The position numbers and the translations under genes are program-made. DNA of 12,090 nucleotides from a virus (Duplodnaviria > Heunggongvirae > Uroviricota > Caudoviricetes): the IMG/VR virus record IMGVR_UViG_2740892233_000019. One strand, 5' to 3'. Under the pieces are notes generated by a model that made no database searches, was not told the origin of the DNA, and worked only from the letters and a program-made list of their open reading frames with translations. This document shows, piece after piece, positions 1 to 12,090 of this stretch (its first letter is position 1; each line of letters opens with the position of its first letter).

Positions 1-1485
1 TTGTTAACTGAACTTGCTGATAGATTTTTTGGTTCACGTTCTGATGACCGTAAAGAGCTTTTAGAACAAGTTAAGCGTGAAAAAGAGTTAAGAAAATCTG
101 CTCAACAACAAGCTCGAAAATCAACACAAAAAAGTTTTTCAGAAGCTTTGAAGAATCAGACACCAGTTCTTGATGCTTCCTTGGAGGCTGTTAAAAGGCT
201 GAAAACTAAGCTTGATAAAACTGATGGTTCGTTAGATTTAAACTATCTTAAAATTATAGACAGTGATCTTACAAACTTAGATGCGTTGCGCAGTGAAATT
301 AAAACGCCTATCAAACCTCCAAAACTTGGAATGTATGAAGAGAAATATAGAGACTACAGAGATAAATTTAATGAGTTCTCTGCGTATATTCTACAAATGA
401 AGTTAGCAATTAATAAACTTGATTCTGAATTAAATAAACTTGAGCCTTCATTGTCAGCGAAAAATCACCTTGAAAAAAATCAAGGTATTATTAATTCTAA
501 ACTAACTAAGTTTAATAACACGATAGAGGAGAAGATACATTCTCTTTTAAAAAAATGGGCCGATGAAATAAAGGTTGATCGAAGTGATTATTATGCTAAA
601 ACTATATCAGTTGTTGATTCAATAGATAATGATTCACAAATTGAAAATGTGTTTAATTTGCTCGATAGTTTATATGTTGAGTCAGTTGATACCCTAACTT
701 TCAAATATCAATCAATAATAAAAGGTCTCGATAGATTATTTGAAGGTATAAACTTAGATTCAGCATTCTCATTATCTGAAGAAGAACGCTCATATTTTGA
801 AGAAAAAGCTAAAAGTTTAAACGCGCTTGCACAGTTAGGTATTAGTGTTGAGATAATATCTCATGAACTTGAAGAAATGGATTCTATGGTAACCAGAGGA
901 CTAAACTCTCTTCCTACTTCTGTAAAAGAACACCCTGGTTTTTCATTGGCGTTAAATGCTCACAGATCGCTTACTCAACAAATACGTTTCTTATCACCTT
1001 TGAAAATATCAGGTTATCAATCCAGGCAGAGAATAACTGGAAAAAATATCATGGATTATGTCCTGAAGTTCTTTGGGGAGCGTTTCGAACGGCAACGAAT
1101 AACTATTGAATTTAGTGAAGAGTTTAAGCAAATCGCAATAACAGATATACCATTAAGGATCTATCCTGTTTTTACTAATATTATCAACAATGCAATGTAT
1201 TGGGTCAGTCTGTCAAATAATAGGCTCATAAAGATTGGTTTTGTGAATTCTTTGGTTATCATAGCAAATTCTGGTCCGGCAATTGATACCGATGATATCC
1301 CGCGACTATTTGAACTATTTTATAGCAAAAGAGCAAATGGACATGGGGTAGGTCTGTATCTATGTCGAGAAAACCTTGCTGTTGCACATCATAAAATATG
1401 GTATTCAGAACCTGATGAAGGCGATAACTATTTAATAAAAGATGGCGCTAATTTTGTGATCCAGTTCAATGGAGTGGAGTTCTAA
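1..1485 (+). CDS. Sensor histidine kinase, 5'-truncated at window edge (coiled-coil-rich N-terminal part, HisKA-like H-box, HATPase_c catalytic domain)
   Basis: Open frame from base 1 with no in-window start. H-box-like ISHELEE (His codon 862-864). N-box NIINNAMYW (about 1177-1203). G1-like NSGPAI, F-box FELFY, G2 box GHGVGL (1339-1356). Stop TAA at 1483-1485. Lys/Glu-rich, heptad-like upstream part. Confidence 0.75.
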   Translation: MLTELADRFFGSRSDDRKELLEQVKREKELRKSAQQQARKSTQKSFSEALKNQTPVLDASLEAVKRLKTKLDKTDGSLDLNYLKIIDSDLTNLDALRSEIKTPIKPPKLGMYEEKYRDYRDKFNEFSAYILQMKLAINKLDSELNKLEPSLSAKNHLEKNQGIINSKLTKFNNTIEEKIHSLLKKWADEIKVDRSDYYAKTISVVDSIDNDSQIENVFNLLDSLYVESVDTLTFKYQSIIKGLDRLFEGINLDSAFSLSEEERSYFEEKAKSLNALAQLGISVEIISHELEEMDSMVTRGLNSLPTSVKEHPGFSLALNAHRSLTQQIRFLSPLKISGYQSRQRITGKNIMDYVLKFFGERFERQRITIEFSEEFKQIAITDIPLRIYPVFTNIINNAMYWVSLSNNRLIKIGFVNSLVIIANSGPAIDTDDIPRLFELFYSKRANGHGVGLYLCRENLAVAHHKIWYSEPDEGDNYLIKDGANFVIQFNGVEF

Positions 1486-1486
1486 T

Positions 1487-3235
1487 ATGACAGTGGCAAA
1501 TTATAATTCTCTTGTCCAGAAAACTTTCTGCGAAAATGCAATTCGTTCCGTTGTCATGATTGATGACGATTTTCTGACGTATTCTGAATCAATCAGGGCG
1601 TTGAATAACGAAGTTGATTTAGACTACAACAAAATTGACTCATCTAAACGAGCCGCTACTCTTGAGAGCTTTTTTCAATCTAAAAATATGATTTGTGATG
1701 TTGACAATGGTTCTGTTAATTTCGATGTGGATCGGATTAGAAAATCAGATCTTATTATTGTAGATTATCATCTTGATAATAATGCACCTGATAAAACACT
1801 TAAACTATTACAAGATTTGAAAGACTCCGATCATTTAAATATGATTGTAATATATACTAGAGAGAATTTAGAAACGGTTTGGATGCAGATATCATCGACT
1901 CTCAAAGGTGCTCTGGATATCAACAGCTTGATCATTGACTACGATAATGAAGATGTCCAAAGTTATTGGGAAGACGTTGTATTACCGAACTTAAATGATA
2001 ATGGTAATAAAGCTCTCACAAGAGATGAAATAATAGCCTATATTAAAGACAGTAAGCCTTGTAGAAGAATTAAAAGATTAATAAATGATGATGCTGTGTT
2101 GGAGGATCAAAAGGATAAAAACTTCATTGCAAAAATGATTGCAGAATATGCTGTGTCTAGAAATGCAATTATTTCTAGCAACACATCTGGCAATGTCATT
2201 CGGGGTGATGAAAGCGGAGTAAAATGGATTCAATGTGGTAATATCTTTGTCTCCCTATTTCATAAGGTTCAAGATGATCATGAAAACGATGGAGATAGGA
2301 TTTGGCAAACTCTCAATGATTCTCTCATTGAATGGAAACCATCTTATTATCAGTTAATAAAATCTGAAATTCAGAATGCAATCGAAGCTGAGGCTTTATC
2401 TTTTGTAAATCATTTGGCTAACGATCATTACGGTCAAGCTGCGTGGTTAAATGAGATATTAAAATCAGACTCGCCTGATATTAGATGTAGAAATATTGAC
2501 TTTGTATTTGGTAATTTATCAGAAGAGCTTTATCAAAGACTTAAAAATAATAATACGCTGGATGAATTTATCAAAAGTGTTTTTGATAGCTATTCAAATG
2601 AATACGCTAACAGCGGAGTTGCTGCATTGCTCCAATATTGCTCTTCAAAAATGGATCTGCCATCAAATAATGATACTTATCACGAAATGTATCATGCTTT
2701 AAATATGAATTTGTCTTCAAAGAATTTTGAAGATGGTCATATTTCTACTGGCACTATTTTCTTTGATACAGAGTCGAACAAATGGTATTTATGTGTATCT
2801 GCGGCATGTGATTTGGTTCCTACTCAGGGTAACGACCCTCACCATGTAAGATTAAGTCCGCACAGGCTCATTAAAGTTCTGGAGCTTTTTAACGCCAGTC
2901 AGAGTAAAGCATTGCCATTTGCTGAACATTCGAAATATATATATGTAATGCATAAAAATCAAAGAAAATATCTCTCTATTTTCGAAGGGGATAAAACGCT
3001 TCCTGTTGTTGATTATATGGTGGTGTTGAATCATGGAACAACAGTTGATGGCGAAGAAAAAAATATTATTTCTGCCGTGTTTTTAAGTAATATGGATGGC
3101 AACGTGCAAAATGTTCCTGTCCGACTCAAACTTAAATCTCAACTGAGAACTGGTTATGCAGAAAGATATCAGGCTATAGCGTCTCAGTATAGCTCAAGGA
3201 TTGGTGTGGATTATGTATCAATGATGCTACCATAA
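1487..3235 (+). CDS. Receiver (REC) domain protein fused to a large uncharacterized C-terminal domain (about 430 aa); candidate effector/output partner of the upstream kinase
   Basis: ATG at 1487 preceded by GGAG (1476-1479) and placed 1 nt after the upstream stop (TAATATGA), supporting coupling; the ORF track's ATG at 1469 has no Shine-Dalgarno. REC hallmarks aligned by eye to CheY: VVMIDDDF acidic pair (DDD codons 1562-1570), LIIVDYHLDNNAPDK candidate phosphoacceptor Asp (1763-1765), MIVIYT conserved Thr. Remainder shows no motif I recognise. Confidence 0.65.
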   Translation: MTVANYNSLVQKTFCENAIRSVVMIDDDFLTYSESIRALNNEVDLDYNKIDSSKRAATLESFFQSKNMICDVDNGSVNFDVDRIRKSDLIIVDYHLDNNAPDKTLKLLQDLKDSDHLNMIVIYTRENLETVWMQISSTLKGALDINSLIIDYDNEDVQSYWEDVVLPNLNDNGNKALTRDEIIAYIKDSKPCRRIKRLINDDAVLEDQKDKNFIAKMIAEYAVSRNAIISSNTSGNVIRGDESGVKWIQCGNIFVSLFHKVQDDHENDGDRIWQTLNDSLIEWKPSYYQLIKSEIQNAIEAEALSFVNHLANDHYGQAAWLNEILKSDSPDIRCRNIDFVFGNLSEELYQRLKNNNTLDEFIKSVFDSYSNEYANSGVAALLQYCSSKMDLPSNNDTYHEMYHALNMNLSSKNFEDGHISTGTIFFDTESNKWYLCVSAACDLVPTQGNDPHHVRLSPHRLIKVLELFNASQSKALPFAEHSKYIYVMHKNQRKYLSIFEGDKTLPVVDYMVVLNHGTTVDGEEKNIISAVFLSNMDGNVQNVPVRLKLKSQLRTGYAERYQAIASQYSSRIGVDYVSMMLP

Positions 3236-3306: not shown

Positions 3307-3723
3307 TTATTTTTGTTTAAGTCTTCTAAGCTTCATGCATTCTAATGAGAATAATAATAGAGTTGTGCTGTATATAAAGCCAGAGTTAGTTAATAACTTT
3401 AAATTTAATGCTTCAGGATTTTCACTGAGAAAGTGAAAGGCATAAACTAAGTATACAGCTAAAGTAGCCGTTCCAATTGTTGGTCCAATATCGCCTTGAT
3501 CATGAGGTTCAAGGTTTACATTGAACTTGAAGATTAGCCATTCAAATCCCCAAGTAAAAAAAACAACTAATATCATGGCTGCGAATAATTTCGCGATGTT
3601 ATCTGCTGATGGATTCATCAGAACAGATTGTTTCTGAAAAAATTCACAAAGTGAGAGTCCGAAAAAAATAAAAAAAAGTGGTCTGGAACTAAATTTTTCA
3701 AAAACTTTGAATAGGGTTTCCAT
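3307..3723 (-). CDS. Small integral membrane protein (about 4 predicted TM helices), unknown function
   Basis: 138-aa ORF with hydrophobic stretches LFFIFFGLSLCEFF, FAAMILVVFFTWGFEWLIF, TLAVYLVYAFHF, FIYSTTLLLFSL. GAAGG-like RBS upstream of ATG at 3723. Sits between integrase and the kinase/REC cassette. Confidence 0.5.
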   Translation of the reverse strand: METLFKVFEKFSSRPLFFIFFGLSLCEFFQKQSVLMNPSADNIAKLFAAMILVVFFTWGFEWLIFKFNVNLEPHDQGDIGPTIGTATLAVYLVYAFHFLSENPEALNLKLLTNSGFIYSTTLLLFSLECMKLRRLKQK

Positions 3724-3761: not shown

Positions 3762-4991
3762 TTAGGCTACCAGAGCATTTGATCTTTGAGCTTGAACGTA
3801 ATCACTCCACCATTGCATCAAACTCTGTCGCTCTATCAGATATTCTGCACGATTGTATGCTGCGATAATTTCATCTTTTTTCGAGTGGGCAAGCGCTGCC
3901 TCAAGAACTTCAGCTCTGAATTTACCAGACTCCTCTGCCGCTGTTCGTGCAATAGAACGCATACCGTGAGCTACAAGCTCGCCTCCGAACCCCATTCGGA
4001 TGATAGCTGCGTTGGCTGTTTGTTCATGCATATGATTAAGAGGCGCTTTTATGCTGGGGAAAACCCATTCTCTATGCCCACTTATTGATTTCATTAATTC
4101 AAGGATGCGCAAAGCTTCTTTACTCAAAGGAACTTTGTGAAGCTTTTTCATTTTCATGAAATCAGCAGGAATGTTCCAAATGCTGTTGGTTGTATCAATA
4201 TCAGACCACCTTGCGCGAACGGCTTCACCCGGACGAACCCATGTCAACAATTGCCATTCAATTAGCATACGTGTTTCCAACCGGATTGACGCATTCGTCA
4301 AAGATTCCATAAACCTTGGCAATTCGCTTGGGGGAAGGGCAGGCATATTTTGCTTTTTTGGTTTACTGAATCTTTGACCAAGGTTGTCAGCCGGGTTGAA
4401 CTCAATAAGTTCTTCAGTAGCTGCCCACCGGAAGATTTCATTCAGACGTGAAATGATACGGCGTAGAGTTTCCAATACGCCTCGTTGCTCAATAGGATCA
4501 AGGTGTTGTTTTAAGAGCTTAGGTCGGATCTCATTGATAGGGACATTACCCAGACCGGGAAAGACATTTCTCTCTAAGCTGCGCCAGATGTCTGCTGCAT
4601 GGTCTTGTGAGATACCTGATGTCTTTACCTTCTCATCTAACCATTTCCGCGCTACGGCTTGGAGAGTGTGCTCAGTAGCACTCTTTAATGCCTTCGCCTT
4701 ATCGTTGTTATGGATTTGGGGATCAACACCATTTGCCAGAAAGGAGAGATATTCATCACGTAAGGCTCTGGCTCTTGCAAGGGTAAGGTGAGGATATGTC
4801 CCAAGGCTCATTTTGGTTCTTTTCTTGCTCACGGGTACTGCATACCTGAAATACCAATTTTTCTTGCCTCCTTTCGCCAAAGGAGCGATTCGTAGAATCA
4901 GACCATCACCGTCAAACAAGTTGATTTCTTTATCGGCTGGCTTGGTGCTTTTGATTTCAGTGTCAGTGAGCTTCTTAGCGATTTTTGCCAT
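3762..4991 (-). CDS. int: Tyrosine recombinase / integrase, P4-type (IntA-like, the family associated with ssrA-integrated islands)
   Basis: N-terminus MAKIAKKLTDTEIKSTKP...DGDGLILRIAP...WYFRY matches the P4/IntA-type N-terminal signature as I recall it. Catalytic boxes: RPGEAVRARW (Arg), HGMRSIARTA (His-x-x-Arg), AYNRAEY (Tyr). Start at 4991 preferred over 5033 (better RBS GAGGG, matches family N-terminus). Confidence 0.9.
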   Translation of the reverse strand: MAKIAKKLTDTEIKSTKPADKEINLFDGDGLILRIAPLAKGGKKNWYFRYAVPVSKKRTKMSLGTYPHLTLARARALRDEYLSFLANGVDPQIHNNDKAKALKSATEHTLQAVARKWLDEKVKTSGISQDHAADIWRSLERNVFPGLGNVPINEIRPKLLKQHLDPIEQRGVLETLRRIISRLNEIFRWAATEELIEFNPADNLGQRFSKPKKQNMPALPPSELPRFMESLTNASIRLETRMLIEWQLLTWVRPGEAVRARWSDIDTTNSIWNIPADFMKMKKLHKVPLSKEALRILELMKSISGHREWVFPSIKAPLNHMHEQTANAAIIRMGFGGELVAHGMRSIARTAAEESGKFRAEVLEAALAHSKKDEIIAAYNRAEYLIERQSLMQWWSDYVQAQRSNALVA

Positions 4992-5155
4992 TTTGGGACC
5001 CTCGGTTTTTGGACCCTTCTTAGTGGGTCCCATTCAGGGTGCCATAACTCGTAGTTCTCAGCAATTCTCACTGGACGACAATAGACGTAAAAAAGCCCGC
5101 AGAGCTTGTGCTGTGTGGGCTTAGTAGACTTCATTGAACTTCAAACAACTAAAAA

Positions 5156-6680: not shown

Positions 6681-7856
6681 TCAGCTTGACACAACATTTA
6701 TAGACGTTTTACCATCGTATTCAGCCAGGTATTTACCGTAATTGCGGAACAGCATTTCCGGCCCCTTATGCCCCATCTGCCCGGCAAGCCAGAAAAGGTT
6801 TACACCCTGGCTAATGTGTCTGGTGGCGAATGTGTGGCGCGTCTGGTACGGGTTACGGTAGCGCACACCAGCTTTTTTCAGGGTCGGCACCCATGCTTTT
6901 TTACGGATAGCGTCGGCGTTCGTCCAGGGTTCTCCCGTTTTCGGATCGCTGAATATGAACTCACTTTTCATAAAGGTGTATTGCTTCTGCGCCTGCAGGG
7001 CTGCCAGCGCCTCACTGTTCAGCTCCACCTTACGGGTACCGGCTTTTGTCTTGGTGCCTTTAAGTACCCCTACGACACTGGCCGCCTGAACGTGGGCTGT
7101 GTTCGCGATGGTGTCGAGATCAGCCCAGCGCAGCGCGCACAGTTCTGAGCTCCGCAGACCTGTATTGAAAGCAAAGCGGAACAGGTTTTCCCATTCCCTG
7201 TACCTGCAGCTCTGGTAAATGGCAAGGGTCTCCGCTGGCGTGAACGGGTCAACCTCGTAATCGTCGGCGCTCGGGCTACTGTCGATCACGTGGTACCGGC
7301 TGGCGCTGACGAGGGTTACCGGGTTAATGGTCAGCAGGCCATCCGTAACAGCTTCATCAATGGCGCTGCGCAGAAATGACAGGTTATTCCTGATTGTTTT
7401 CAGCTTAGTTTTTCGGCTGGCTATCCAATTTTTTAGTATCGCAGGCGTCAATTCTGTTACATGTAGTTTATGTAGTTCTGATAGTGCTGATAGACATTTT
7501 TCGTAACCGCCAATGGTTGACGGCGACAGATTACGGTTTATGCAAATTTTCAGGTATTCATCAAGATAGGACTTAATATTTTTGGTTTTCTTTACTACAC
7601 CGAATAACTCCAGTTTTTTGGAATTGGGGAAATATTTCGCATATTCAAACGTTCCGCTGGCGATCTGATTTTGTATCTCCCCTAGCAGGCGCTCAGCATA
7701 TTTTATACCACGTGTATTTGCCTCAAGCCGAGATAGGGGCTCCCTGCAAAGAACCCCTTTATATGTGAAAGTGATAACTAGTGTTGAAGCAGTTTTATGC
7801 TTACGAATAGTTACTCCTCTTGGCAGAGATAATAATCCTTGTTCTTTCTTGCCCAT
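6681..7856 (-). CDS. int: Phage integrase (tyrosine recombinase) of the lambdoid prophage
   Basis: C-terminal catalytic boxes: GLRSSELCALRWADLD (Arg), TRHTFATRH (box II, LRHxFAT-like), LFRNYGKYL (Tyr). Start at MGKKEQ (7856) preferred over 7883. The excisionase ORF overlaps its 5' end, as is typical for int-xis pairs. Confidence 0.85.
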   Translation of the reverse strand: MGKKEQGLLSLPRGVTIRKHKTASTLVITFTYKGVLCREPLSRLEANTRGIKYAERLLGEIQNQIASGTFEYAKYFPNSKKLELFGVVKKTKNIKSYLDEYLKICINRNLSPSTIGGYEKCLSALSELHKLHVTELTPAILKNWIASRKTKLKTIRNNLSFLRSAIDEAVTDGLLTINPVTLVSASRYHVIDSSPSADDYEVDPFTPAETLAIYQSCRYREWENLFRFAFNTGLRSSELCALRWADLDTIANTAHVQAASVVGVLKGTKTKAGTRKVELNSEALAALQAQKQYTFMKSEFIFSDPKTGEPWTNADAIRKKAWVPTLKKAGVRYRNPYQTRHTFATRHISQGVNLFWLAGQMGHKGPEMLFRNYGKYLAEYDGKTSINVVSS

Positions 7857-8020
7857 TTTGAAACCTCTATTAAGTCGACCCAACGCTCTTTAACCCCGTC
7901 GACTTTTAATACATGTACCCCTTCTTTCCATATTCCTCTTTGTATCCGTTTGTTAACGGCATCAACCGTTTCTCCCGCGTTGCGGCAGTAGGTTGATATA
8001 GGTACGCAATCCAGCCCCAC
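7811..8020 (-). CDS. xis: Excisionase-like small DNA-binding protein (Xis)
   Basis: 69-aa basic ORF immediately upstream of and overlapping int. GTG start at 8020 with GAGGTGA Shine-Dalgarno 5 nt upstream. Sequence pattern resembles the excisionase-like family by eye; no strong motif check is possible. Confidence 0.55.
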   Translation of the reverse strand: MGLDCVPISTYCRNAGETVDAVNKRIQRGIWKEGVHVLKVDGVKERWVDLIEVSKWARKNKDYYLCQEE

Positions 8021-8178
8021 AGTTCACCTCACACAACATTCAGCCCACGACAGTGACACCACACTTCAAACATTCGTTTCACAATTTCACGACAGTAGAA
8101 ACCGTCAACATCTCGCGTCAGGTCATAGCGATTGCCGAATGTCTTGCGAACCCATAACTCAAAAACCGTATGCATGTA

Positions 8179-8421
8179 TCACCTCCGTTGCATTGCGCGC
8201 AATTTTTTCAGGTGCTTTTCCTGCTCAGTGTCCGCCAGGATTTTGCAATACTGCTGGTGGTCAATATGTTCGAACAGGCAGTTGAACTCACCAATGCATA
8301 CCCGCCCGGAGTGTCCGTCCATACGTCGAAAGAACACAGAGCGGTCCGTACAGCGAGTAATCACCACAGGGTATCCGGCCCTGTCCGTGTATATTTGCCC
8401 GCGTTGAATAAGTGCGAACAT
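8179..8421 (-). CDS. Phage early-region hypothetical protein (80 aa)
   Basis: ORF in the minus-strand operon; GGGGA RBS before ATG at 8421; only 4 nt from the stop of the upstream 27-aa ORF. The opposite-strand ORFs at 8132..8407 and 8170..8454 are judged spurious. Confidence 0.5.
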   Translation of the reverse strand: MFALIQRGQIYTDRAGYPVVITRCTDRSVFFRRMDGHSGRVCIGEFNCLFEHIDHQQYCKILADTEQEKHLKKLRAMQRR

Positions 8422-8425
8422 GAGA

Positions 8426-8509
8426 TTATCCCCAGCGGCAAATCGAAAAAATAATCAGCGCAATCGATATTGCAACACCTACAATTGCAAATGCTTCAGG
8501 CCAACTCAT
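8426..8509 (-). CDS. Small hydrophobic peptide (27 aa, single predicted TM helix), absent from the ORF track
   Basis: Hand translation of the minus strand gives MSWPEAFAIVGVAISIALIIFSICRWG, stop TAA. Its ATG (8509..8507) overlaps the TGA stop of the DUF551 gene as ATGA, indicating translational coupling. Confidence 0.35.
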   Translation of the reverse strand: MSWPEAFAIVGVAISIALIIFSICRWG

Positions 8510-9369
8510 TGACTCACCTCCTGCGGCGGTTCTGGTAGAGGCATCCAGTGGGTTACATCGCATTCAGGGATGCTGATATCATCACCAAGCCACCCTTGAC
8601 CTTCAGACCAGCATTGCACGTAATACCCGTATTCTGTGTTCACTACGCACCACTGTGCGTCGTTCGGCATTAGCTCACTACAGCTTATCCAACCATCCGG
8701 AGTTACCGGAACTTGCGGAATGGCTGTCTGCTCTCGAACGTCATTAGGCGCTATAGGTTCTGCTGCCAACTGACTGGCATATTTGTTAATGGTAACGATA
8801 AGCTCTTGCTCAGCCTCATCCAGATAATCACCGATACCTCGCCTGTCACCGTCAAAATCATCGAAATCGGCACGAATCTTGGCAACCTTCTGGATTGCGG
8901 ACAACACCTCACTAGGAATTACCGGATAGTTGGTTGACGTTTCCGCGATTTCCCGAAAATTATTGGTTGACGAATTCTTATTTTCCCGAAAGTTTCTGGC
9001 CTGAAGCATGGCGGCGCGGCAGGCATTCCAGCCAGTAGCGTAATATTTCGCATCCTGCCAGCTCGTTTGTACATTTGAGTACGCTTTTTCCTCTGTCATG
9101 GCCTCTGGTATTGATGCCGGTGCAATTCGTGGCAGGCCGATATATAGTGGTACATCTCCCGGCTCCATCGAATTGACGGGCCAAATATACGCATCACTAC
9201 CATGGTTAATGAGCGCAATCCCCGAAGTATCGATGATGCCAAATGGCTCCGCTGTCAATGCAGTCAATGCAATTTCATAAGCCCGACGCTCAATATTGTC
9301 TCGCACGTCCAGGCTGCTTATGCGCTCTTTGATTTCTTTAATCAGTTTCTTATCGGTGAAAGTGGTCAT
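8506..9369 (-). CDS. Phage protein with C-terminal DUF551-like domain (Ea22-like early-left region protein)
   Basis: 287-aa ORF ending in the Cys/Trp-rich motif CSELMPNDAQWCVV...HWMPLPEPP, which I recognise as the DUF551 signature of lambdoid prophage early proteins. One nt separates it from the upstream gene. Confidence 0.65.
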   Translation of the reverse strand: MTTFTDKKLIKEIKERISSLDVRDNIERRAYEIALTALTAEPFGIIDTSGIALINHGSDAYIWPVNSMEPGDVPLYIGLPRIAPASIPEAMTEEKAYSNVQTSWQDAKYYATGWNACRAAMLQARNFRENKNSSTNNFREIAETSTNYPVIPSEVLSAIQKVAKIRADFDDFDGDRRGIGDYLDEAEQELIVTINKYASQLAAEPIAPNDVREQTAIPQVPVTPDGWISCSELMPNDAQWCVVNTEYGYYVQCWSEGQGWLGDDISIPECDVTHWMPLPEPPQEVSQ

Positions 9370-9370
9370 C

Positions 9371-9700
9371 TCACTCTCCTTTGATGCGAATGCCAGCGAC
9401 GCGTAGTGCGTGTTCTAAGTCAATCAGGCAAAGCCAGCTGCCATTTTCTTTAGGTATCATGACATGTCGCTTATCAGCATTTATTGGGTGCCCATATCGA
9501 AGGTCGTAGCGAGTCGGTAATTGAACTTCCCTCGCTTCCAGTTCTGTAATGCGTTTGTTTTTAGCTTCTAGTTCATCCAGCAGCACCAGCACAACCTGCG
9601 GTGTGACTTTCATACGAAACGCAAGCAATTTTTGCGGCGTTGCCACGACTTTTATTGCTTCTGCCGCCTCACGCAGTGCCTGATAGTCAATCTTGCTCAC
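9371..9700 (-). CDS. Ead/Ea22-like family small phage protein
   Basis: N-terminus MSKIDYQALREAAEAIK resembles the QALREAAE-type start of Ead/Ea22-like prophage proteins as I recall them. ATGA overlap with the upstream gene. Confidence 0.55.
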   Translation of the reverse strand: MSKIDYQALREAAEAIKVVATPQKLLAFRMKVTPQVVLVLLDELEAKNKRITELEAREVQLPTRYDLRYGHPINADKRHVMIPKENGSWLCLIDLEHALRVAGIRIKGE

Positions 9701-9936
9701 TGGTTGCCTCCTTTACGGATCTGCGCTGCGATGCGCGAAAAAAAAGCCTCCCGCGTATGGCTGTTAAGAGCTGGCGCGAACGCCGCGTTAAGAACGGCAG
9801 CATCACAGCCGTCATCGATATAGAGCGCAATTTTTTTCTCCAGGCGCGCTTTGGCTTCCTGCAACTGCATACCCCGGCACGCACGCGGGATATAATCAGC
9901 AATTTGAGCGATAGCTTTTTCGTTCTGTTTAAACAT
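9697..9936 (-). CDS. Phage early-region hypothetical protein (79 aa)
   Basis: Protein-like composition; overlaps neighbours by 4 and 8 nt in operon fashion. Preferred over the overlapping Arg-rich 9687..10049 frame. Confidence 0.5.
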   Translation of the reverse strand: MFKQNEKAIAQIADYIPRACRGMQLQEAKARLEKKIALYIDDGCDAAVLNAAFAPALNSHTREAFFSRIAAQIRKGGNQ

Positions 9937-10132
9937 GCTTCACCTCGATAGGCTTGATGGTGTCTAACAGCAGTCGGCGGCGCGTATTTTCTGCAAAATG
10001 GCGGCGTCCAGTTTCTTTGTGGTAAAACTCGTTTTTGCCAACGACCCACATCCGCTCTGTTTGGTGCAATTTTTTTACCTGCGGGCCATCTTTGGTGATC
10101 ACGGTACCGGTATGGGTTTTTACGATTGTCAT
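9929..10132 (-). CDS. Phage early-region hypothetical protein (67 aa)
   Basis: Small basic ORF coupled by a 4-nt overlap to the PAPS-reductase-like gene upstream and an 8-nt overlap downstream. Confidence 0.5.
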   Translation of the reverse strand: MTIVKTHTGTVITKDGPQVKKLHQTERMWVVGKNEFYHKETGRRHFAENTRRRLLLDTIKPIEVKHV

Positions 10133-11007
10133 GCCACGACCTCTTCGAATTTCAACTCCAATTGGTCACCCCAGATTTCACATGATTCGGAACACGAACC
10201 AGTATCAAACCGCTTGGCCAGCACCATCGCCTGATACAAACTTCTGTAGTCGCTGTCGGCATACATTCTGGCAATCCCGTCAAGCGTCAGGTGACCACGG
10301 TACATAACGTCTTTACCTGTTCTGCGATGACCATCCCTGACGTGTTTGCCTGTAACCAGTTCATTAAAAACCCGCATCAGACCAGGTTCGTCTTTACATG
10401 CAAGCCCCAGCTTTTGCGTTGACTTTTTGATGCAAAAAACACAGTTCCCGAGGTGCTCCGGGATTTGCAAATCAAAAGGTTGTTTTTGCCACCACCGGAT
10501 AACATCCGACTTATCAAAATCTGACAGCTCGGCAAGATACCGGACGCCAGGTTTCGGTTTCAGCCTACGGGGTTCGTCCGCACGAATACCGAGCCATGTG
10601 ATGTAATTCCCTCGCCCAAAATGGTCATCGCAATATTTCGTGAAAGGGGTGAGTTTTAGCCTGTCAGTACAGAATGCGCCGCCGATGTATGGCGTACCGT
10701 ACTTTTTAACCATGTCCATAAACGGTTTAAGCACCGGCATTCGCGTCTGAATATCCTTTGGTTCCCATTCCGTATAACCATTTGGCTGCCCAAGCTCTGG
10801 ATTTATATCGACCTGCAACACAGTTAGCGGTATGCCCCAGAACTTCAAAACCTCCCGAATAAAGCGGTATGTCAGCGGATGTTCGCAACCGGTATCCATA
10901 AAGATGTAGCAGACGTTATTGCCAGCCTTTCTTTGTTCTTCCATCAGGTGAACAAGATATGCAGATGTTCTCCCGCCAGAAAAACTAACTACATGAGTTA
11001 TGCACAT
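10129..11007 (-). CDS. Phosphoadenosine-phosphosulfate (PAPS) reductase-like PP-loop protein, phage type
   Basis: N-terminal PP-loop motif SFSGGRTS (SGGxDS-type). C-terminal cysteine pairs CVFC and CSESC. This family is commonly found in lambdoid prophage early-left regions. Confidence 0.8.
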   Translation of the reverse strand: MCITHVVSFSGGRTSAYLVHLMEEQRKAGNNVCYIFMDTGCEHPLTYRFIREVLKFWGIPLTVLQVDINPELGQPNGYTEWEPKDIQTRMPVLKPFMDMVKKYGTPYIGGAFCTDRLKLTPFTKYCDDHFGRGNYITWLGIRADEPRRLKPKPGVRYLAELSDFDKSDVIRWWQKQPFDLQIPEHLGNCVFCIKKSTQKLGLACKDEPGLMRVFNELVTGKHVRDGHRRTGKDVMYRGHLTLDGIARMYADSDYRSLYQAMVLAKRFDTGSCSESCEIWGDQLELKFEEVVA

Positions 11008-11303
11008 TTGCGTAATTCCGATAACTCGTTGAAGCGTTCCATAAACATCCCGTAGGCATGGCCCGGTGCCAGTGGAATCACTTTGAACATCTCTGTTGCC
11101 GGGATACCTTCCAATACAGGCCAGAAAGAGCCATCATCAAGTCCGAGATCGCGGCGTTCGGTTGCCAGCATGATGAGATCGGCATATTTCACTGGCGTGC
11201 TCATAACAGGAGGTAACCCGTATTTCTCACGGATTACGGCGTCTATTTTTTCTTCCATCCGTTTATAGTCAGGAAGAAGTCGTTTCAGTGGCGCGGGGAT
11301 GTC
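10998..11303 (-). CDS. Phage hypothetical protein, 5'-truncated by the N-gap
   Basis: Open frame runs into the N-run; the clean part encodes DIPAPLKRLLPDYKRMEEKIDAVIREKYG...ELRKCA. Overlaps the start of the PAPS-reductase-like gene by 10 nt. Confidence 0.45.
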   Translation of the reverse strand, partial: DIPAPLKRLLPDYKRMEEKIDAVIREKYGLPPVMSTPVKYADLIMLATERRDLGLDDGSFWPVLEGIPATEMFKVIPLAPGHAYGMFMERFNELSELRKCA

Positions 11304-11304
11304 C

Positions 11305-11314
11305 NNNNNNNNNN
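11305..11314. other. Run of 10 N: assembly or scaffold gap
   Basis: Ten consecutive n characters. Reading frames on both sides are interrupted and flanking composition and gene content differ. Confidence 0.95.
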
Positions 11315-11316
11315 AC

Positions 11317-12090
11317 TTTACTGATGGAACAACAAACCAGTTGAACATCAGCAACTCCCTGATTCATGGTTCAATCACTTCAATGCTGCCTATGGGTGAA
11401 AGCAGTGATGGTCATTATGTCTATCAGTTCTCTGAATACGGTACTGATCGTGTAATTGATGATAATTGGCATGATGGTGATGTATTCACTTTAAATATTG
11501 CTAATTCTACAATTGATGACGATTATGAAGGTTTATACTTCACTGATTCATATCTGGACGGTGACGTTACCAAATATACTAACGAAACCTTCCATACCCC
11601 AGCTGGTGAAGGTGAAGAATACGCCGGTTTGTTTGCAAACGGTGGTGTTGGCCTTGGGCTGGCAGTGAATCTTGATGTCGAAAGTAACATCAATATTTCT
11701 AACAACTCCCGCGTTGCTGGTATCAGCCTGACTCAGGGTAATACCGTAAACAATACTTACACTACTGAATCTCATACTTGGGATAACAATATCTCAGTTA
11801 CCGATTCCACAGTGACTTCAGGTTCTGTAACTACTCTGGAAGACAGTGGTTTCTATGGTAACTCTGCGGAACCTAGTGATTACTCTGGTAACGGCGAAGC
11901 TAATGATGTAGCTCTGTATTTCAGTGATAGTGCGGCTTCAAATTACTCCATGAAAAACAATGTTTATTTCAGCAATTCTACTCTGCTGGGTGATGTTGTT
12001 TTCGCAAGTACTTTCAACGCAAACTTCTATCCTCAAGGTCATGACAGTAATGCCGATGGCGTACTTGGACACCAATGGTGGCTGGGCTGA
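11317..12090 (+). CDS. Asn/Ser/Thr/Gly/Asp-rich repeat protein fragment, 5'-partial (adhesin or autotransporter passenger-like)
   Basis: Frame open from the gap to TGA at 12088-12090. Composition and short repeats (NISNSLIHGS, NIANSTIDDD, NINISNNSRVAGISL, NNISVTDSTVTSGSV) are typical of beta-helical adhesin passenger domains. The ATG at 11299 is chance, lying before the gap. Confidence 0.4.
   Translation, partial: FTDGTTNQLNISNSLIHGSITSMLPMGESSDGHYVYQFSEYGTDRVIDDNWHDGDVFTLNIANSTIDDDYEGLYFTDSYLDGDVTKYTNETFHTPAGEGEEYAGLFANGGVGLGLAVNLDVESNINISNNSRVAGISLTQGNTVNNTYTTESHTWDNNISVTDSTVTSGSVTTLEDSGFYGNSAEPSDYSGNGEANDVALYFSDSAASNYSMKNNVYFSNSTLLGDVVFASTFNANFYPQGHDSNADGVLGHQWWLG

Follow-up and report, generated by a model that had tools for sequence, protein, structure and literature searches.

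In Detocs, a His-Asp phosphorelay gates an effector that is fused to a receiver, with DtcA acting as the kinase, DtcB as a buffer receiver and DtcC as a receiver-PNP effector. A different pair of domains, Response_reg_2 together with HEF_HK, was defined computationally by Bellieny-Rabelo, Pretorius and Moleleki in 2021 (Genome Biol Evol, PMC8011034), who linked it to C5 methylases, Vsr and restriction-modification genes and proposed that it forms a cytoplasmic two-component-like system derived from paraMORCs, the GHKL ATPases of restriction-modification systems reported by Iyer, Abhiman and Aravind in 2008 (PMC2292703). The Ambrosia anti-phage system of Pseudomonas aeruginosa (AbrR, AbrA, AbrB, AbrC and AbrD), validated in a 2025 preprint (bioRxiv 10.1101/2025.09.30.679545), comprises an XRE regulator, an N6 methylase, a GHKL/kinase protein (AbrB), a receiver protein of 209 amino acids (aa; AbrC) and an HNH nuclease (AbrD), and all components are required for defence, including the ATPase, the receiver Asp and the separate HNH nuclease. 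Here we analysed a stretch of 12,090 nucleotides from a virus of the Caudoviricetes (IMG/VR record IMGVR_UViG_2740892233_000019; the whole stretch is called the window below), in which a response regulator-like (RR-like) gene of the Response_reg_2 family directly follows a histidine kinase (HK)-like gene. A preliminary description of this DNA had singled out positions 1950-3235 as a large C-terminal domain with no recognisable fold or catalytic motif. We found that this region is the back half of an oversized receiver together with a family-specific output module of about 300 residues, and that it is a real, conserved and uncharacterised domain in a gene family that has been described but is functionally unexplored; the copy at hand is decayed. 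A search of the literature turned up no functional characterisation of the RR-like family or its C-terminal module.

The window protein is a member of the family defined in 2021. Its sole sequence-family match is to Pfam PF19192 (Response_reg_2; residues 25-181, 109.1 bits against a cut-off of 27), which was also matched by 55 of 55 aligned relatives; the neighbouring gene product has HEF_HK (PF19191) and HATPase_c domains, and the relatives lie near C5 methylases and sometimes Vsr. A HEF_HK kinase-like gene adjoins the RR-like gene in the window and in all ten contexts of relatives that were inspected. However, the 2021 paper (PMC8011034) defines only the receiver and His-box domains, for which it suggests a regulatory two-component system, and the C-terminal module is not analysed there; in addition, the window kinase has the architecture called 'group 2' in that paper, without HATPase_c_3, which we show below to stem from a truncation by the insertion sequence IS3. 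The open reading frame (ORF) of 588 codons at 1469-3235 (plus strand) is real, with 1469 being an upstream alternative ATG; the probable start is M7 at 1487, whose equivalent is used by NCBI and by the relatives, where it lies 1-2 bases past the kinase stop codon. Searches with the PADLOC-DB v2 hidden Markov models gave no significant match for the window RR-like protein or for two relatives.

Receiver layout and C-terminal module

The AlphaFold2 (AF2) model of the full RR-like protein (predicted local distance difference test, pLDDT, 85.3; predicted template modelling score, pTM, 0.78) contains a CheY-like (beta-alpha)5 receiver, which is completed by a strand at 259-265, K266 and a helix at 274-289 only after a helical insertion (Table 1). 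This layout agrees with the 'loop extension' and the conserved Lys, corresponding to K266, already noted by Bellieny-Rabelo et al. (PMC8011034). Residue conservation, here and below, was counted over 126 non-redundant members less than 70% identical to each other. D99, T130 and K266 were kept in 126/126 members, D32 in 125/126 and D33 in a fraction of 0.87, and the insertion (residues 134-232) was the least conserved part of the protein, with a mean conservation of 0.26. Position 1950 (residue 161), where the region flagged earlier begins, falls in this insertion; because strand 5 and helix 5 come after it, position 1950 lies within the receiver, and the unassigned part is confined to residues ~293-588 (2345-3235). 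The earlier division of the protein into a receiver of about 150 residues and some 430 further residues was thus not confirmed, since the receiver of the AF2 model reaches the helix at 274-289.

For the shorter part that is left, the statement that it bears no known signature stands at the sequence level. The C-terminal part had no match in NCBIfam or PADLOC; Pfam at E<=10 gave no match on residues 290-588 or 417-588 and, across 55 family members, nothing consistent beyond the receiver; and all PDB sequences, searched with phmmer and with the family profile, gave no match at E<=10. The Pfam searches of the 55 members also revealed no helix-turn-helix, LytTR or other DNA-binding family. When residues 290-588 were modelled separately (pLDDT 87.3), Foldseek found no significant match in the PDB (best E 0.14), and no specific structural match was obtained for the helical bundle. 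In the models, the strand order of the barrel and its terminal helix fit the CcdB/MazF fold, although the likeness is distant. The profiles of the barrel, the helical part and the whole C-terminal part, compared by hhalign with a 120-sequence MazF profile, reached only 0.1-0.3% probability. Because both the Foldseek and hhalign comparisons were negative, we describe the modelled barrel as having a CcdB/MazF-like topology and do not assign it to that superfamily.

Two short motifs in this part were considered as catalytic signatures and rejected. FDTESNK (432-438), as a nuclease motif, sits in a variable loop and is not conserved, and no conserved D...(D/E)xK motif of the PD-(D/E)xK nucleases was found. 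RLSPH (461-465), as a HEPN motif, lies in a beta-rich domain and not, as R-x4-6-H does in HEPN proteins, in an all-alpha domain; R461 is present in 41/126 and H465 in 35/126 members, with only P464 being conserved (96/126). The preliminary description was thus right in calling neither a nuclease nor a HEPN domain.

Conservation is instead concentrated on other residues. N412, G428 and C447 are each invariant (126/126), those of the tail are nearly so (R577, 124/126; G579, 123/126; D581, 120/126; pLDDT below 50 for residues 577-588 in the full model), and C442 (112/126), R566 (111/126), R560 (105/126) and D448 (102/126) are also conserved, giving an approximate module signature of ALN ... [ST]TG[TS] ... 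C-x-[ST]-P-A-C-D-x-V-P ... QLR-x2-YA-x-R ... [SG]RIGVD[FY]. Across members whose identity to the window protein falls to about 20%, the invariant Asn, Gly and Cys and the R-x-G-x-D tail would point to an active site more than to a surface that reads DNA. Compared with an 86%-identical relative, no part of the RR-like protein is as constrained as the barrel, where the ratio of nonsynonymous to synonymous substitution rates (dN/dS) was 0.031, against 0.073 in the helical bundle and 0.14 in the receiver; the barrel is under strong purifying selection.

Table 1. Coordinates of the genes, domains and neighbouring features in the window
Feature	Position	Strand	Remarks
HK-like gene, 3' part (ORF cut by the window)	1-1485	+	HEF_HK dimerisation/His-phosphotransfer domain and HATPase_c catalytic domain
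RR-like gene, Response_reg_2 family	1487-3235	+	WP_000214985.1; stop codon 3233-3235
Receiver core, strands 1-4 (residues 12-133)	1502-1867	+	Holds acidic pair D32/D33, phospho-acceptor D99 (1763-1765) and T130
Helical insertion inside the receiver (residues 134-232)	1868-2164	+	AF2 helices
Receiver strand 5 and helix 5 (residues 240-290)	2186-2338	+	Includes invariant K266 (2264-2266)
Helical-bundle domain (residues 293-416)	2345-2716	+	SEIQN motif 299-303; ends with invariant N412 (2702-2704); from AF2 models
Beta-barrel domain and C-terminal helix (residues 417-576)	2717-3196	+	Modelled CcdB/MazF-like topology; G428 (2750-2752), C442, C447 (2807-2809), D448, Q558-L559-R560 and R566 conserved
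C-terminal tail	3197-3232	+	Near-invariant R577-I-G579-V-D581-(F/Y); modelled with low confidence
Hydrophobic 138-aa ORF, hypothetical protein	3307-3723	-	Between RR-like gene and integrase; no family match
P4-type tyrosine integrase flanking the remnant	3762-5033	-	Arm-DNA-bind_3, Phage_int_M, Phage_integrase
DUF4760 membrane protein, 313 aa	5290-6231	-	Alone between two integrase genes; very weak PADLOC match (DrmMII, E 0.0026)
Second integrase, then early lambdoid prophage genes	6681-11304		DUF4222, DUF551, ead/Ea22-like, PAPS-reductase-like (10129-11007), yfdR

The three-gene context of relatives

The ten contexts inspected included a Tn7-like element of Acinetobacter junii, a metagenome-assembled genome of the Acidobacteriaceae in which the genes lie beside conjugation genes, an 86%-identical enterobacterial island (L007) beside a P4-type integrase and smpB, a Salmonella integrative conjugative element, loci in Klebsiella and in Yersinia, and three metagenomic contigs. 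In 10/10 of them, a C5 DNA methylase gene (PF00145) is followed by a gene for a kinase of 972-993 aa and, last, by the RR-like gene, and the ORFs usually overlap or abut. The kinase of this intact trio, a paraMORC-histidine kinase of ~980 aa, combines an N-terminal HATPase_c_3 domain with HEF_HK and a C-terminal HATPase_c domain. A Vsr gene is added in one metagenomic contig, and a separate nuclease gene is absent from most trio contexts. PADLOC called the methylase a Type II methylase, and its Type II restriction endonuclease models matched the GHKL domain of the kinase. The RR-like protein is the last component of a restriction-modification-like mobile module of three genes. Two relatives are located directly downstream of glmS (L011:230-2059 and L012:1738-3630) and another lies inside a Tn7-like element with TnsB, C, D and E (L002:1-6836); these positions indicate that the trio moves as Tn7-type cargo, besides being carried by integrase islands and integrative conjugative elements.

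To define the spread of the module, residues 290-588 were compared by phmmer with 1.84 billion representative proteins at E<=0.001, yielding 268 clusters at 50% identity. The architecture was checked in 144 of the 150 best module matches, the other six having already been returned by the first homologue search. Receiver and module occurred together in 102/102 examined matches of at least 520 aa, the shorter matches look like gene fragments, and no other domain architecture with the module was seen among the 144. Judging from these architectures, the module is dedicated to the Response_reg_2 receiver and is not shuffled between proteins.

The trio resembles the paraMORC systems (PMC2292703) in that the intact partner kinase has an N-terminal HATPase_c_3 domain and is linked to cytosine methylases and Vsr. 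However, the paraMORC families on record either have helicases as partners or contain nuclease domains themselves, and receiver domains are not mentioned in that work; the RR-like trio, unlike these families, adds a histidine-kinase core and a receiver partner. With Ambrosia it shares an operon that brings a methylase together with a GHKL-ATPase/histidine-kinase protein and with a receiver protein. The N-terminal 399 residues of AbrB are collinear with the intact kinase (BLASTP E 2e-10 over the GHKL domain, 1e-5 over a middle segment), and on this alignment the intact family kinase is homologous to AbrB; the kinase remnant of the window keeps only the second AbrB-like segment. The two systems differ in that AbrC belongs to the ordinary Response_reg family, is without the C-terminal module and reaches only 0.2% probability against the RR-like family profile. 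They also differ in gene content: the Ambrosia methylase is of the N6 type and is accompanied by an XRE regulator and a separate HNH nuclease, whereas in the RR-like trio the methylase is of the C5 type and a nuclease gene of its own is usually lacking. The window contains no gene for an N6 methylase, an XRE regulator or an HNH nuclease. Detocs is also distinct: no PADLOC match to its components was obtained, and the RR-like trio lacks a buffer receiver, has another putative effector domain and is linked to a methylase.

Possible roles of the module

Of the readings considered, the one we favour, at about even odds, takes residues 293-588 as the phosphorelay output of a methylation-linked defence trio, most likely a gated effector, working as follows. 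The GHKL/MORC part of the kinase would engage DNA and report unprotected or foreign DNA; the kinase core would then autophosphorylate at the HEF_HK histidine, and the phosphoryl group would move to D99 of the receiver; the C-terminal module, with its helical bundle and CcdB/MazF-like barrel, would in turn be released or activated and would act as the executive part, toxic or directed at nucleic acid, through N412, G428, C447/D448, R560 and R577-G-x-D581. This reading draws on the conserved phosphotransfer residues, on a trio that usually has no other executor, on the enzyme-like invariance and low dN/dS of the barrel and on its toxin-like fold. Furthermore, for a gene carried as mobile cargo and placed directly after a histidine-kinase-like gene, a phosphorylation-gated output is the natural reading. 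The preliminary description had likewise seen a phosphorylation-gated effector in a receiver fused to an unknown domain in mobile cargo; the fusion, the cargo setting and the kinase neighbour are borne out, but the pair has been known since 2021, the module is unshuffled and the window copy is truncated at IS3. We regard as unlikely the narrower proposal that the module is a new enzymatic effector built around the invariant Cys447, which would execute restriction or abortive infection in a cytosine-methylation immunity trio and whose killing activity a MORC-like kinase that clamps DNA would license through His-Asp phosphotransfer.

Several observations weigh against a gated effector. The structural match is weak, as the Foldseek and hhalign values given above indicate, and the conserved residues of the module are not the MazF Arg/Thr pair. 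Defence effectors are typically shuffled, and a module found in a single architecture departs from this and could equally serve as an adaptor or structural part. In addition, homologous ORFs, 36-60% identical to each other, lie convergent to the trio in Salmonella (L008:9816-10559, minus strand), Yersinia (L015:8855-9550, minus strand) and Klebsiella (L014:9042-9548, minus strand). They show an N-terminal CxxCGG...DHxPSK pattern and a sub-threshold match to HNH_5 (E 0.013), and may represent a fourth, nuclease component reminiscent of Ambrosia AbrD, which is not found in the window. Finally, the authors of the Ambrosia study favour a transcriptional role for the receiver AbrC (bioRxiv 10.1101/2025.09.30.679545).

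Some of these observations lend support to a module that is a non-catalytic, DNA- or partner-binding output, which would target or regulate the paraMORC-kinase clamp or, as proposed for AbrC, switch on transcription of the methylase or a nuclease after phosphorylation. The module is always on the same receiver, an HNH-like ORF stands beside the trio in the three enterobacterial relatives, and Ambrosia offers a precedent with its separate HNH nuclease, its short receiver protein and its reported infection-induced expression (bioRxiv 10.1101/2025.09.30.679545). Nevertheless, we consider such an output a serious but somewhat unlikely rival, since Pfam revealed no DNA-binding family in the 55 members, the invariance of Asn, Gly, Cys and the tail persists down to about 20% identity, as would be more typical of an active site, and most contexts have no separate nuclease to regulate. 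Very unlikely, in our view, is that the barrel is a true but highly diverged member of the CcdB/MazF group, serving as a sequence-specific endoribonuclease in abortive infection or as a gyrase poison, with the receiver and bundle as a covalent antitoxin controlled by phosphorylation. The strand order and terminal helix would fit that fold, but Foldseek was negative, hhalign against the MazF profile gave 0.1% probability, and no PemK or CcdB match appeared in Pfam for the 55 members even at E<=10. Unlike CcdB, MazF and Kid, moreover, the RR-like barrel forms one chain with a receiver and a helical bundle, exceeds these toxins by about 50 residues, shows no detectable sequence or profile similarity to them and has no antitoxin gene next to it in the window or in the contexts of relatives inspected; N412, G428, C447, R577 and D581 are without counterpart among their known functional residues.

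If the module is an effector, the trios would constitute a widespread class of methylation-linked immunity, carried on Tn7-like elements, integrative conjugative elements and P4-type islands in hosts ranging from Acidobacteria to Enterobacteriaceae. A MORC-like ATPase would then report by phosphorelay to a previously undescribed toxic domain, connecting bacterial MORC relatives, two-component signalling and restriction-modification and complementing Ambrosia; should the effector be built around Cys447, a two-component phosphorelay would provide the wiring of a restriction-modification system.

The truncated copy in Escherichia coli and its surroundings

The HK-like ORF of the window matches HEF_HK at residues 278-336 (27 bits, cut-off 24.1) and HATPase_c at residues 384-475. 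The full ORF in E. coli encodes 572 aa, which align with residues 412-982 of the intact Acinetobacter kinase at 64% identity; HATPase_c_3 and the first 411 kinase residues are missing. By this alignment, the E. coli kinase is a 5'-truncated remnant of a paraMORC-histidine kinase of ~980-990 aa. Upstream of the window, an IS3 element (L001:10453-11766 in E. coli O26:H11 11368) abuts the 5' end of the kinase-like gene, the kinase frame runs upstream to the end of IS3, and it is exactly at this junction that the nucleotide sequence becomes homologous to the intact gene. Neither the window nor the O26 chromosome region contains the C5 methylase, and in O26 the upstream position is taken by IS3. 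A survey of 5426 complete E. coli genomes recovered this same break-point from 561 and the intact trio from none (0/5426). In 562 genomes, among them O26, O103, O111, O91 and derivatives of E. coli W, copies of the remnant share an identity of 99% or more; copies so similar carry no information on selection since the deletion. The window copy is therefore the relic of one IS3-associated deletion event. Several strains have further insertions of IS1, IS3 or ISVsa5 in the two genes, and a truncated RR-like form of 453 aa represents 1605 database sequences.

In E. coli, the module has probably become an orphan or lost its activity, its present function being doubtful, and for the window copy, in a way compatible with each reading of the family given above, we think it rather probable that the gene is a functionless relic, kept only for want of time to decay. 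The methylase and kinase residues 1-411 were deleted at the IS3 boundary, the shared break-point and near-identity of the copies together with the absence of any intact trio from the 5426 genomes fit such a relic, and so do the additional insertions and the 453-aa form. Against this, about 560 genomes retain the two ORFs undamaged, and the kinase remnant keeps its His box and catalytic domain, so that an orphan kinase-receiver pair could still signal. The deletion took away the methylase but, of the kinase, just its ATPase half, and the outcome was viable; this implies that the kinase core and RR-like protein are not autonomously lethal on unmethylated DNA, which fits an effector that requires upstream activation. 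The pair annotated as 'ATP-binding protein' and 'response regulator receiver domain' in ~10% of complete E. coli genomes, among them O26, O103, O111 and other phylogroup B1-type strains, is the stump of the trio and not an ordinary regulatory two-component system.

Downstream of the RR-like gene, the hydrophobic 138-aa ORF was considered as a fourth component of the system and rejected, because no homologue occurs beside any relative and none is present in the intact 86%-identical island, in which the integrase lies 118 bp past the RR-like gene. The equivalent integrase in that island (L007) adjoins smpB, so that the window locus looks like a classic ssrA-type island. The DUF4760 gene stands where small cargo or defence genes are typically found. 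The G+C content is ~33% in the island and rises to ~48% across the segment that starts with the second integrase. A run of ten N at 11305-11314 interrupts yfdR, and collinearity between the window and the O26 chromosome ends at 11304; the sequence past the gap comes from elsewhere, probably through a scaffold join. This last segment (11315-12090) contains an open-ended ORF rich in N/S/T/G repeats, resembling the passenger domain of an autotransporter or adhesin.

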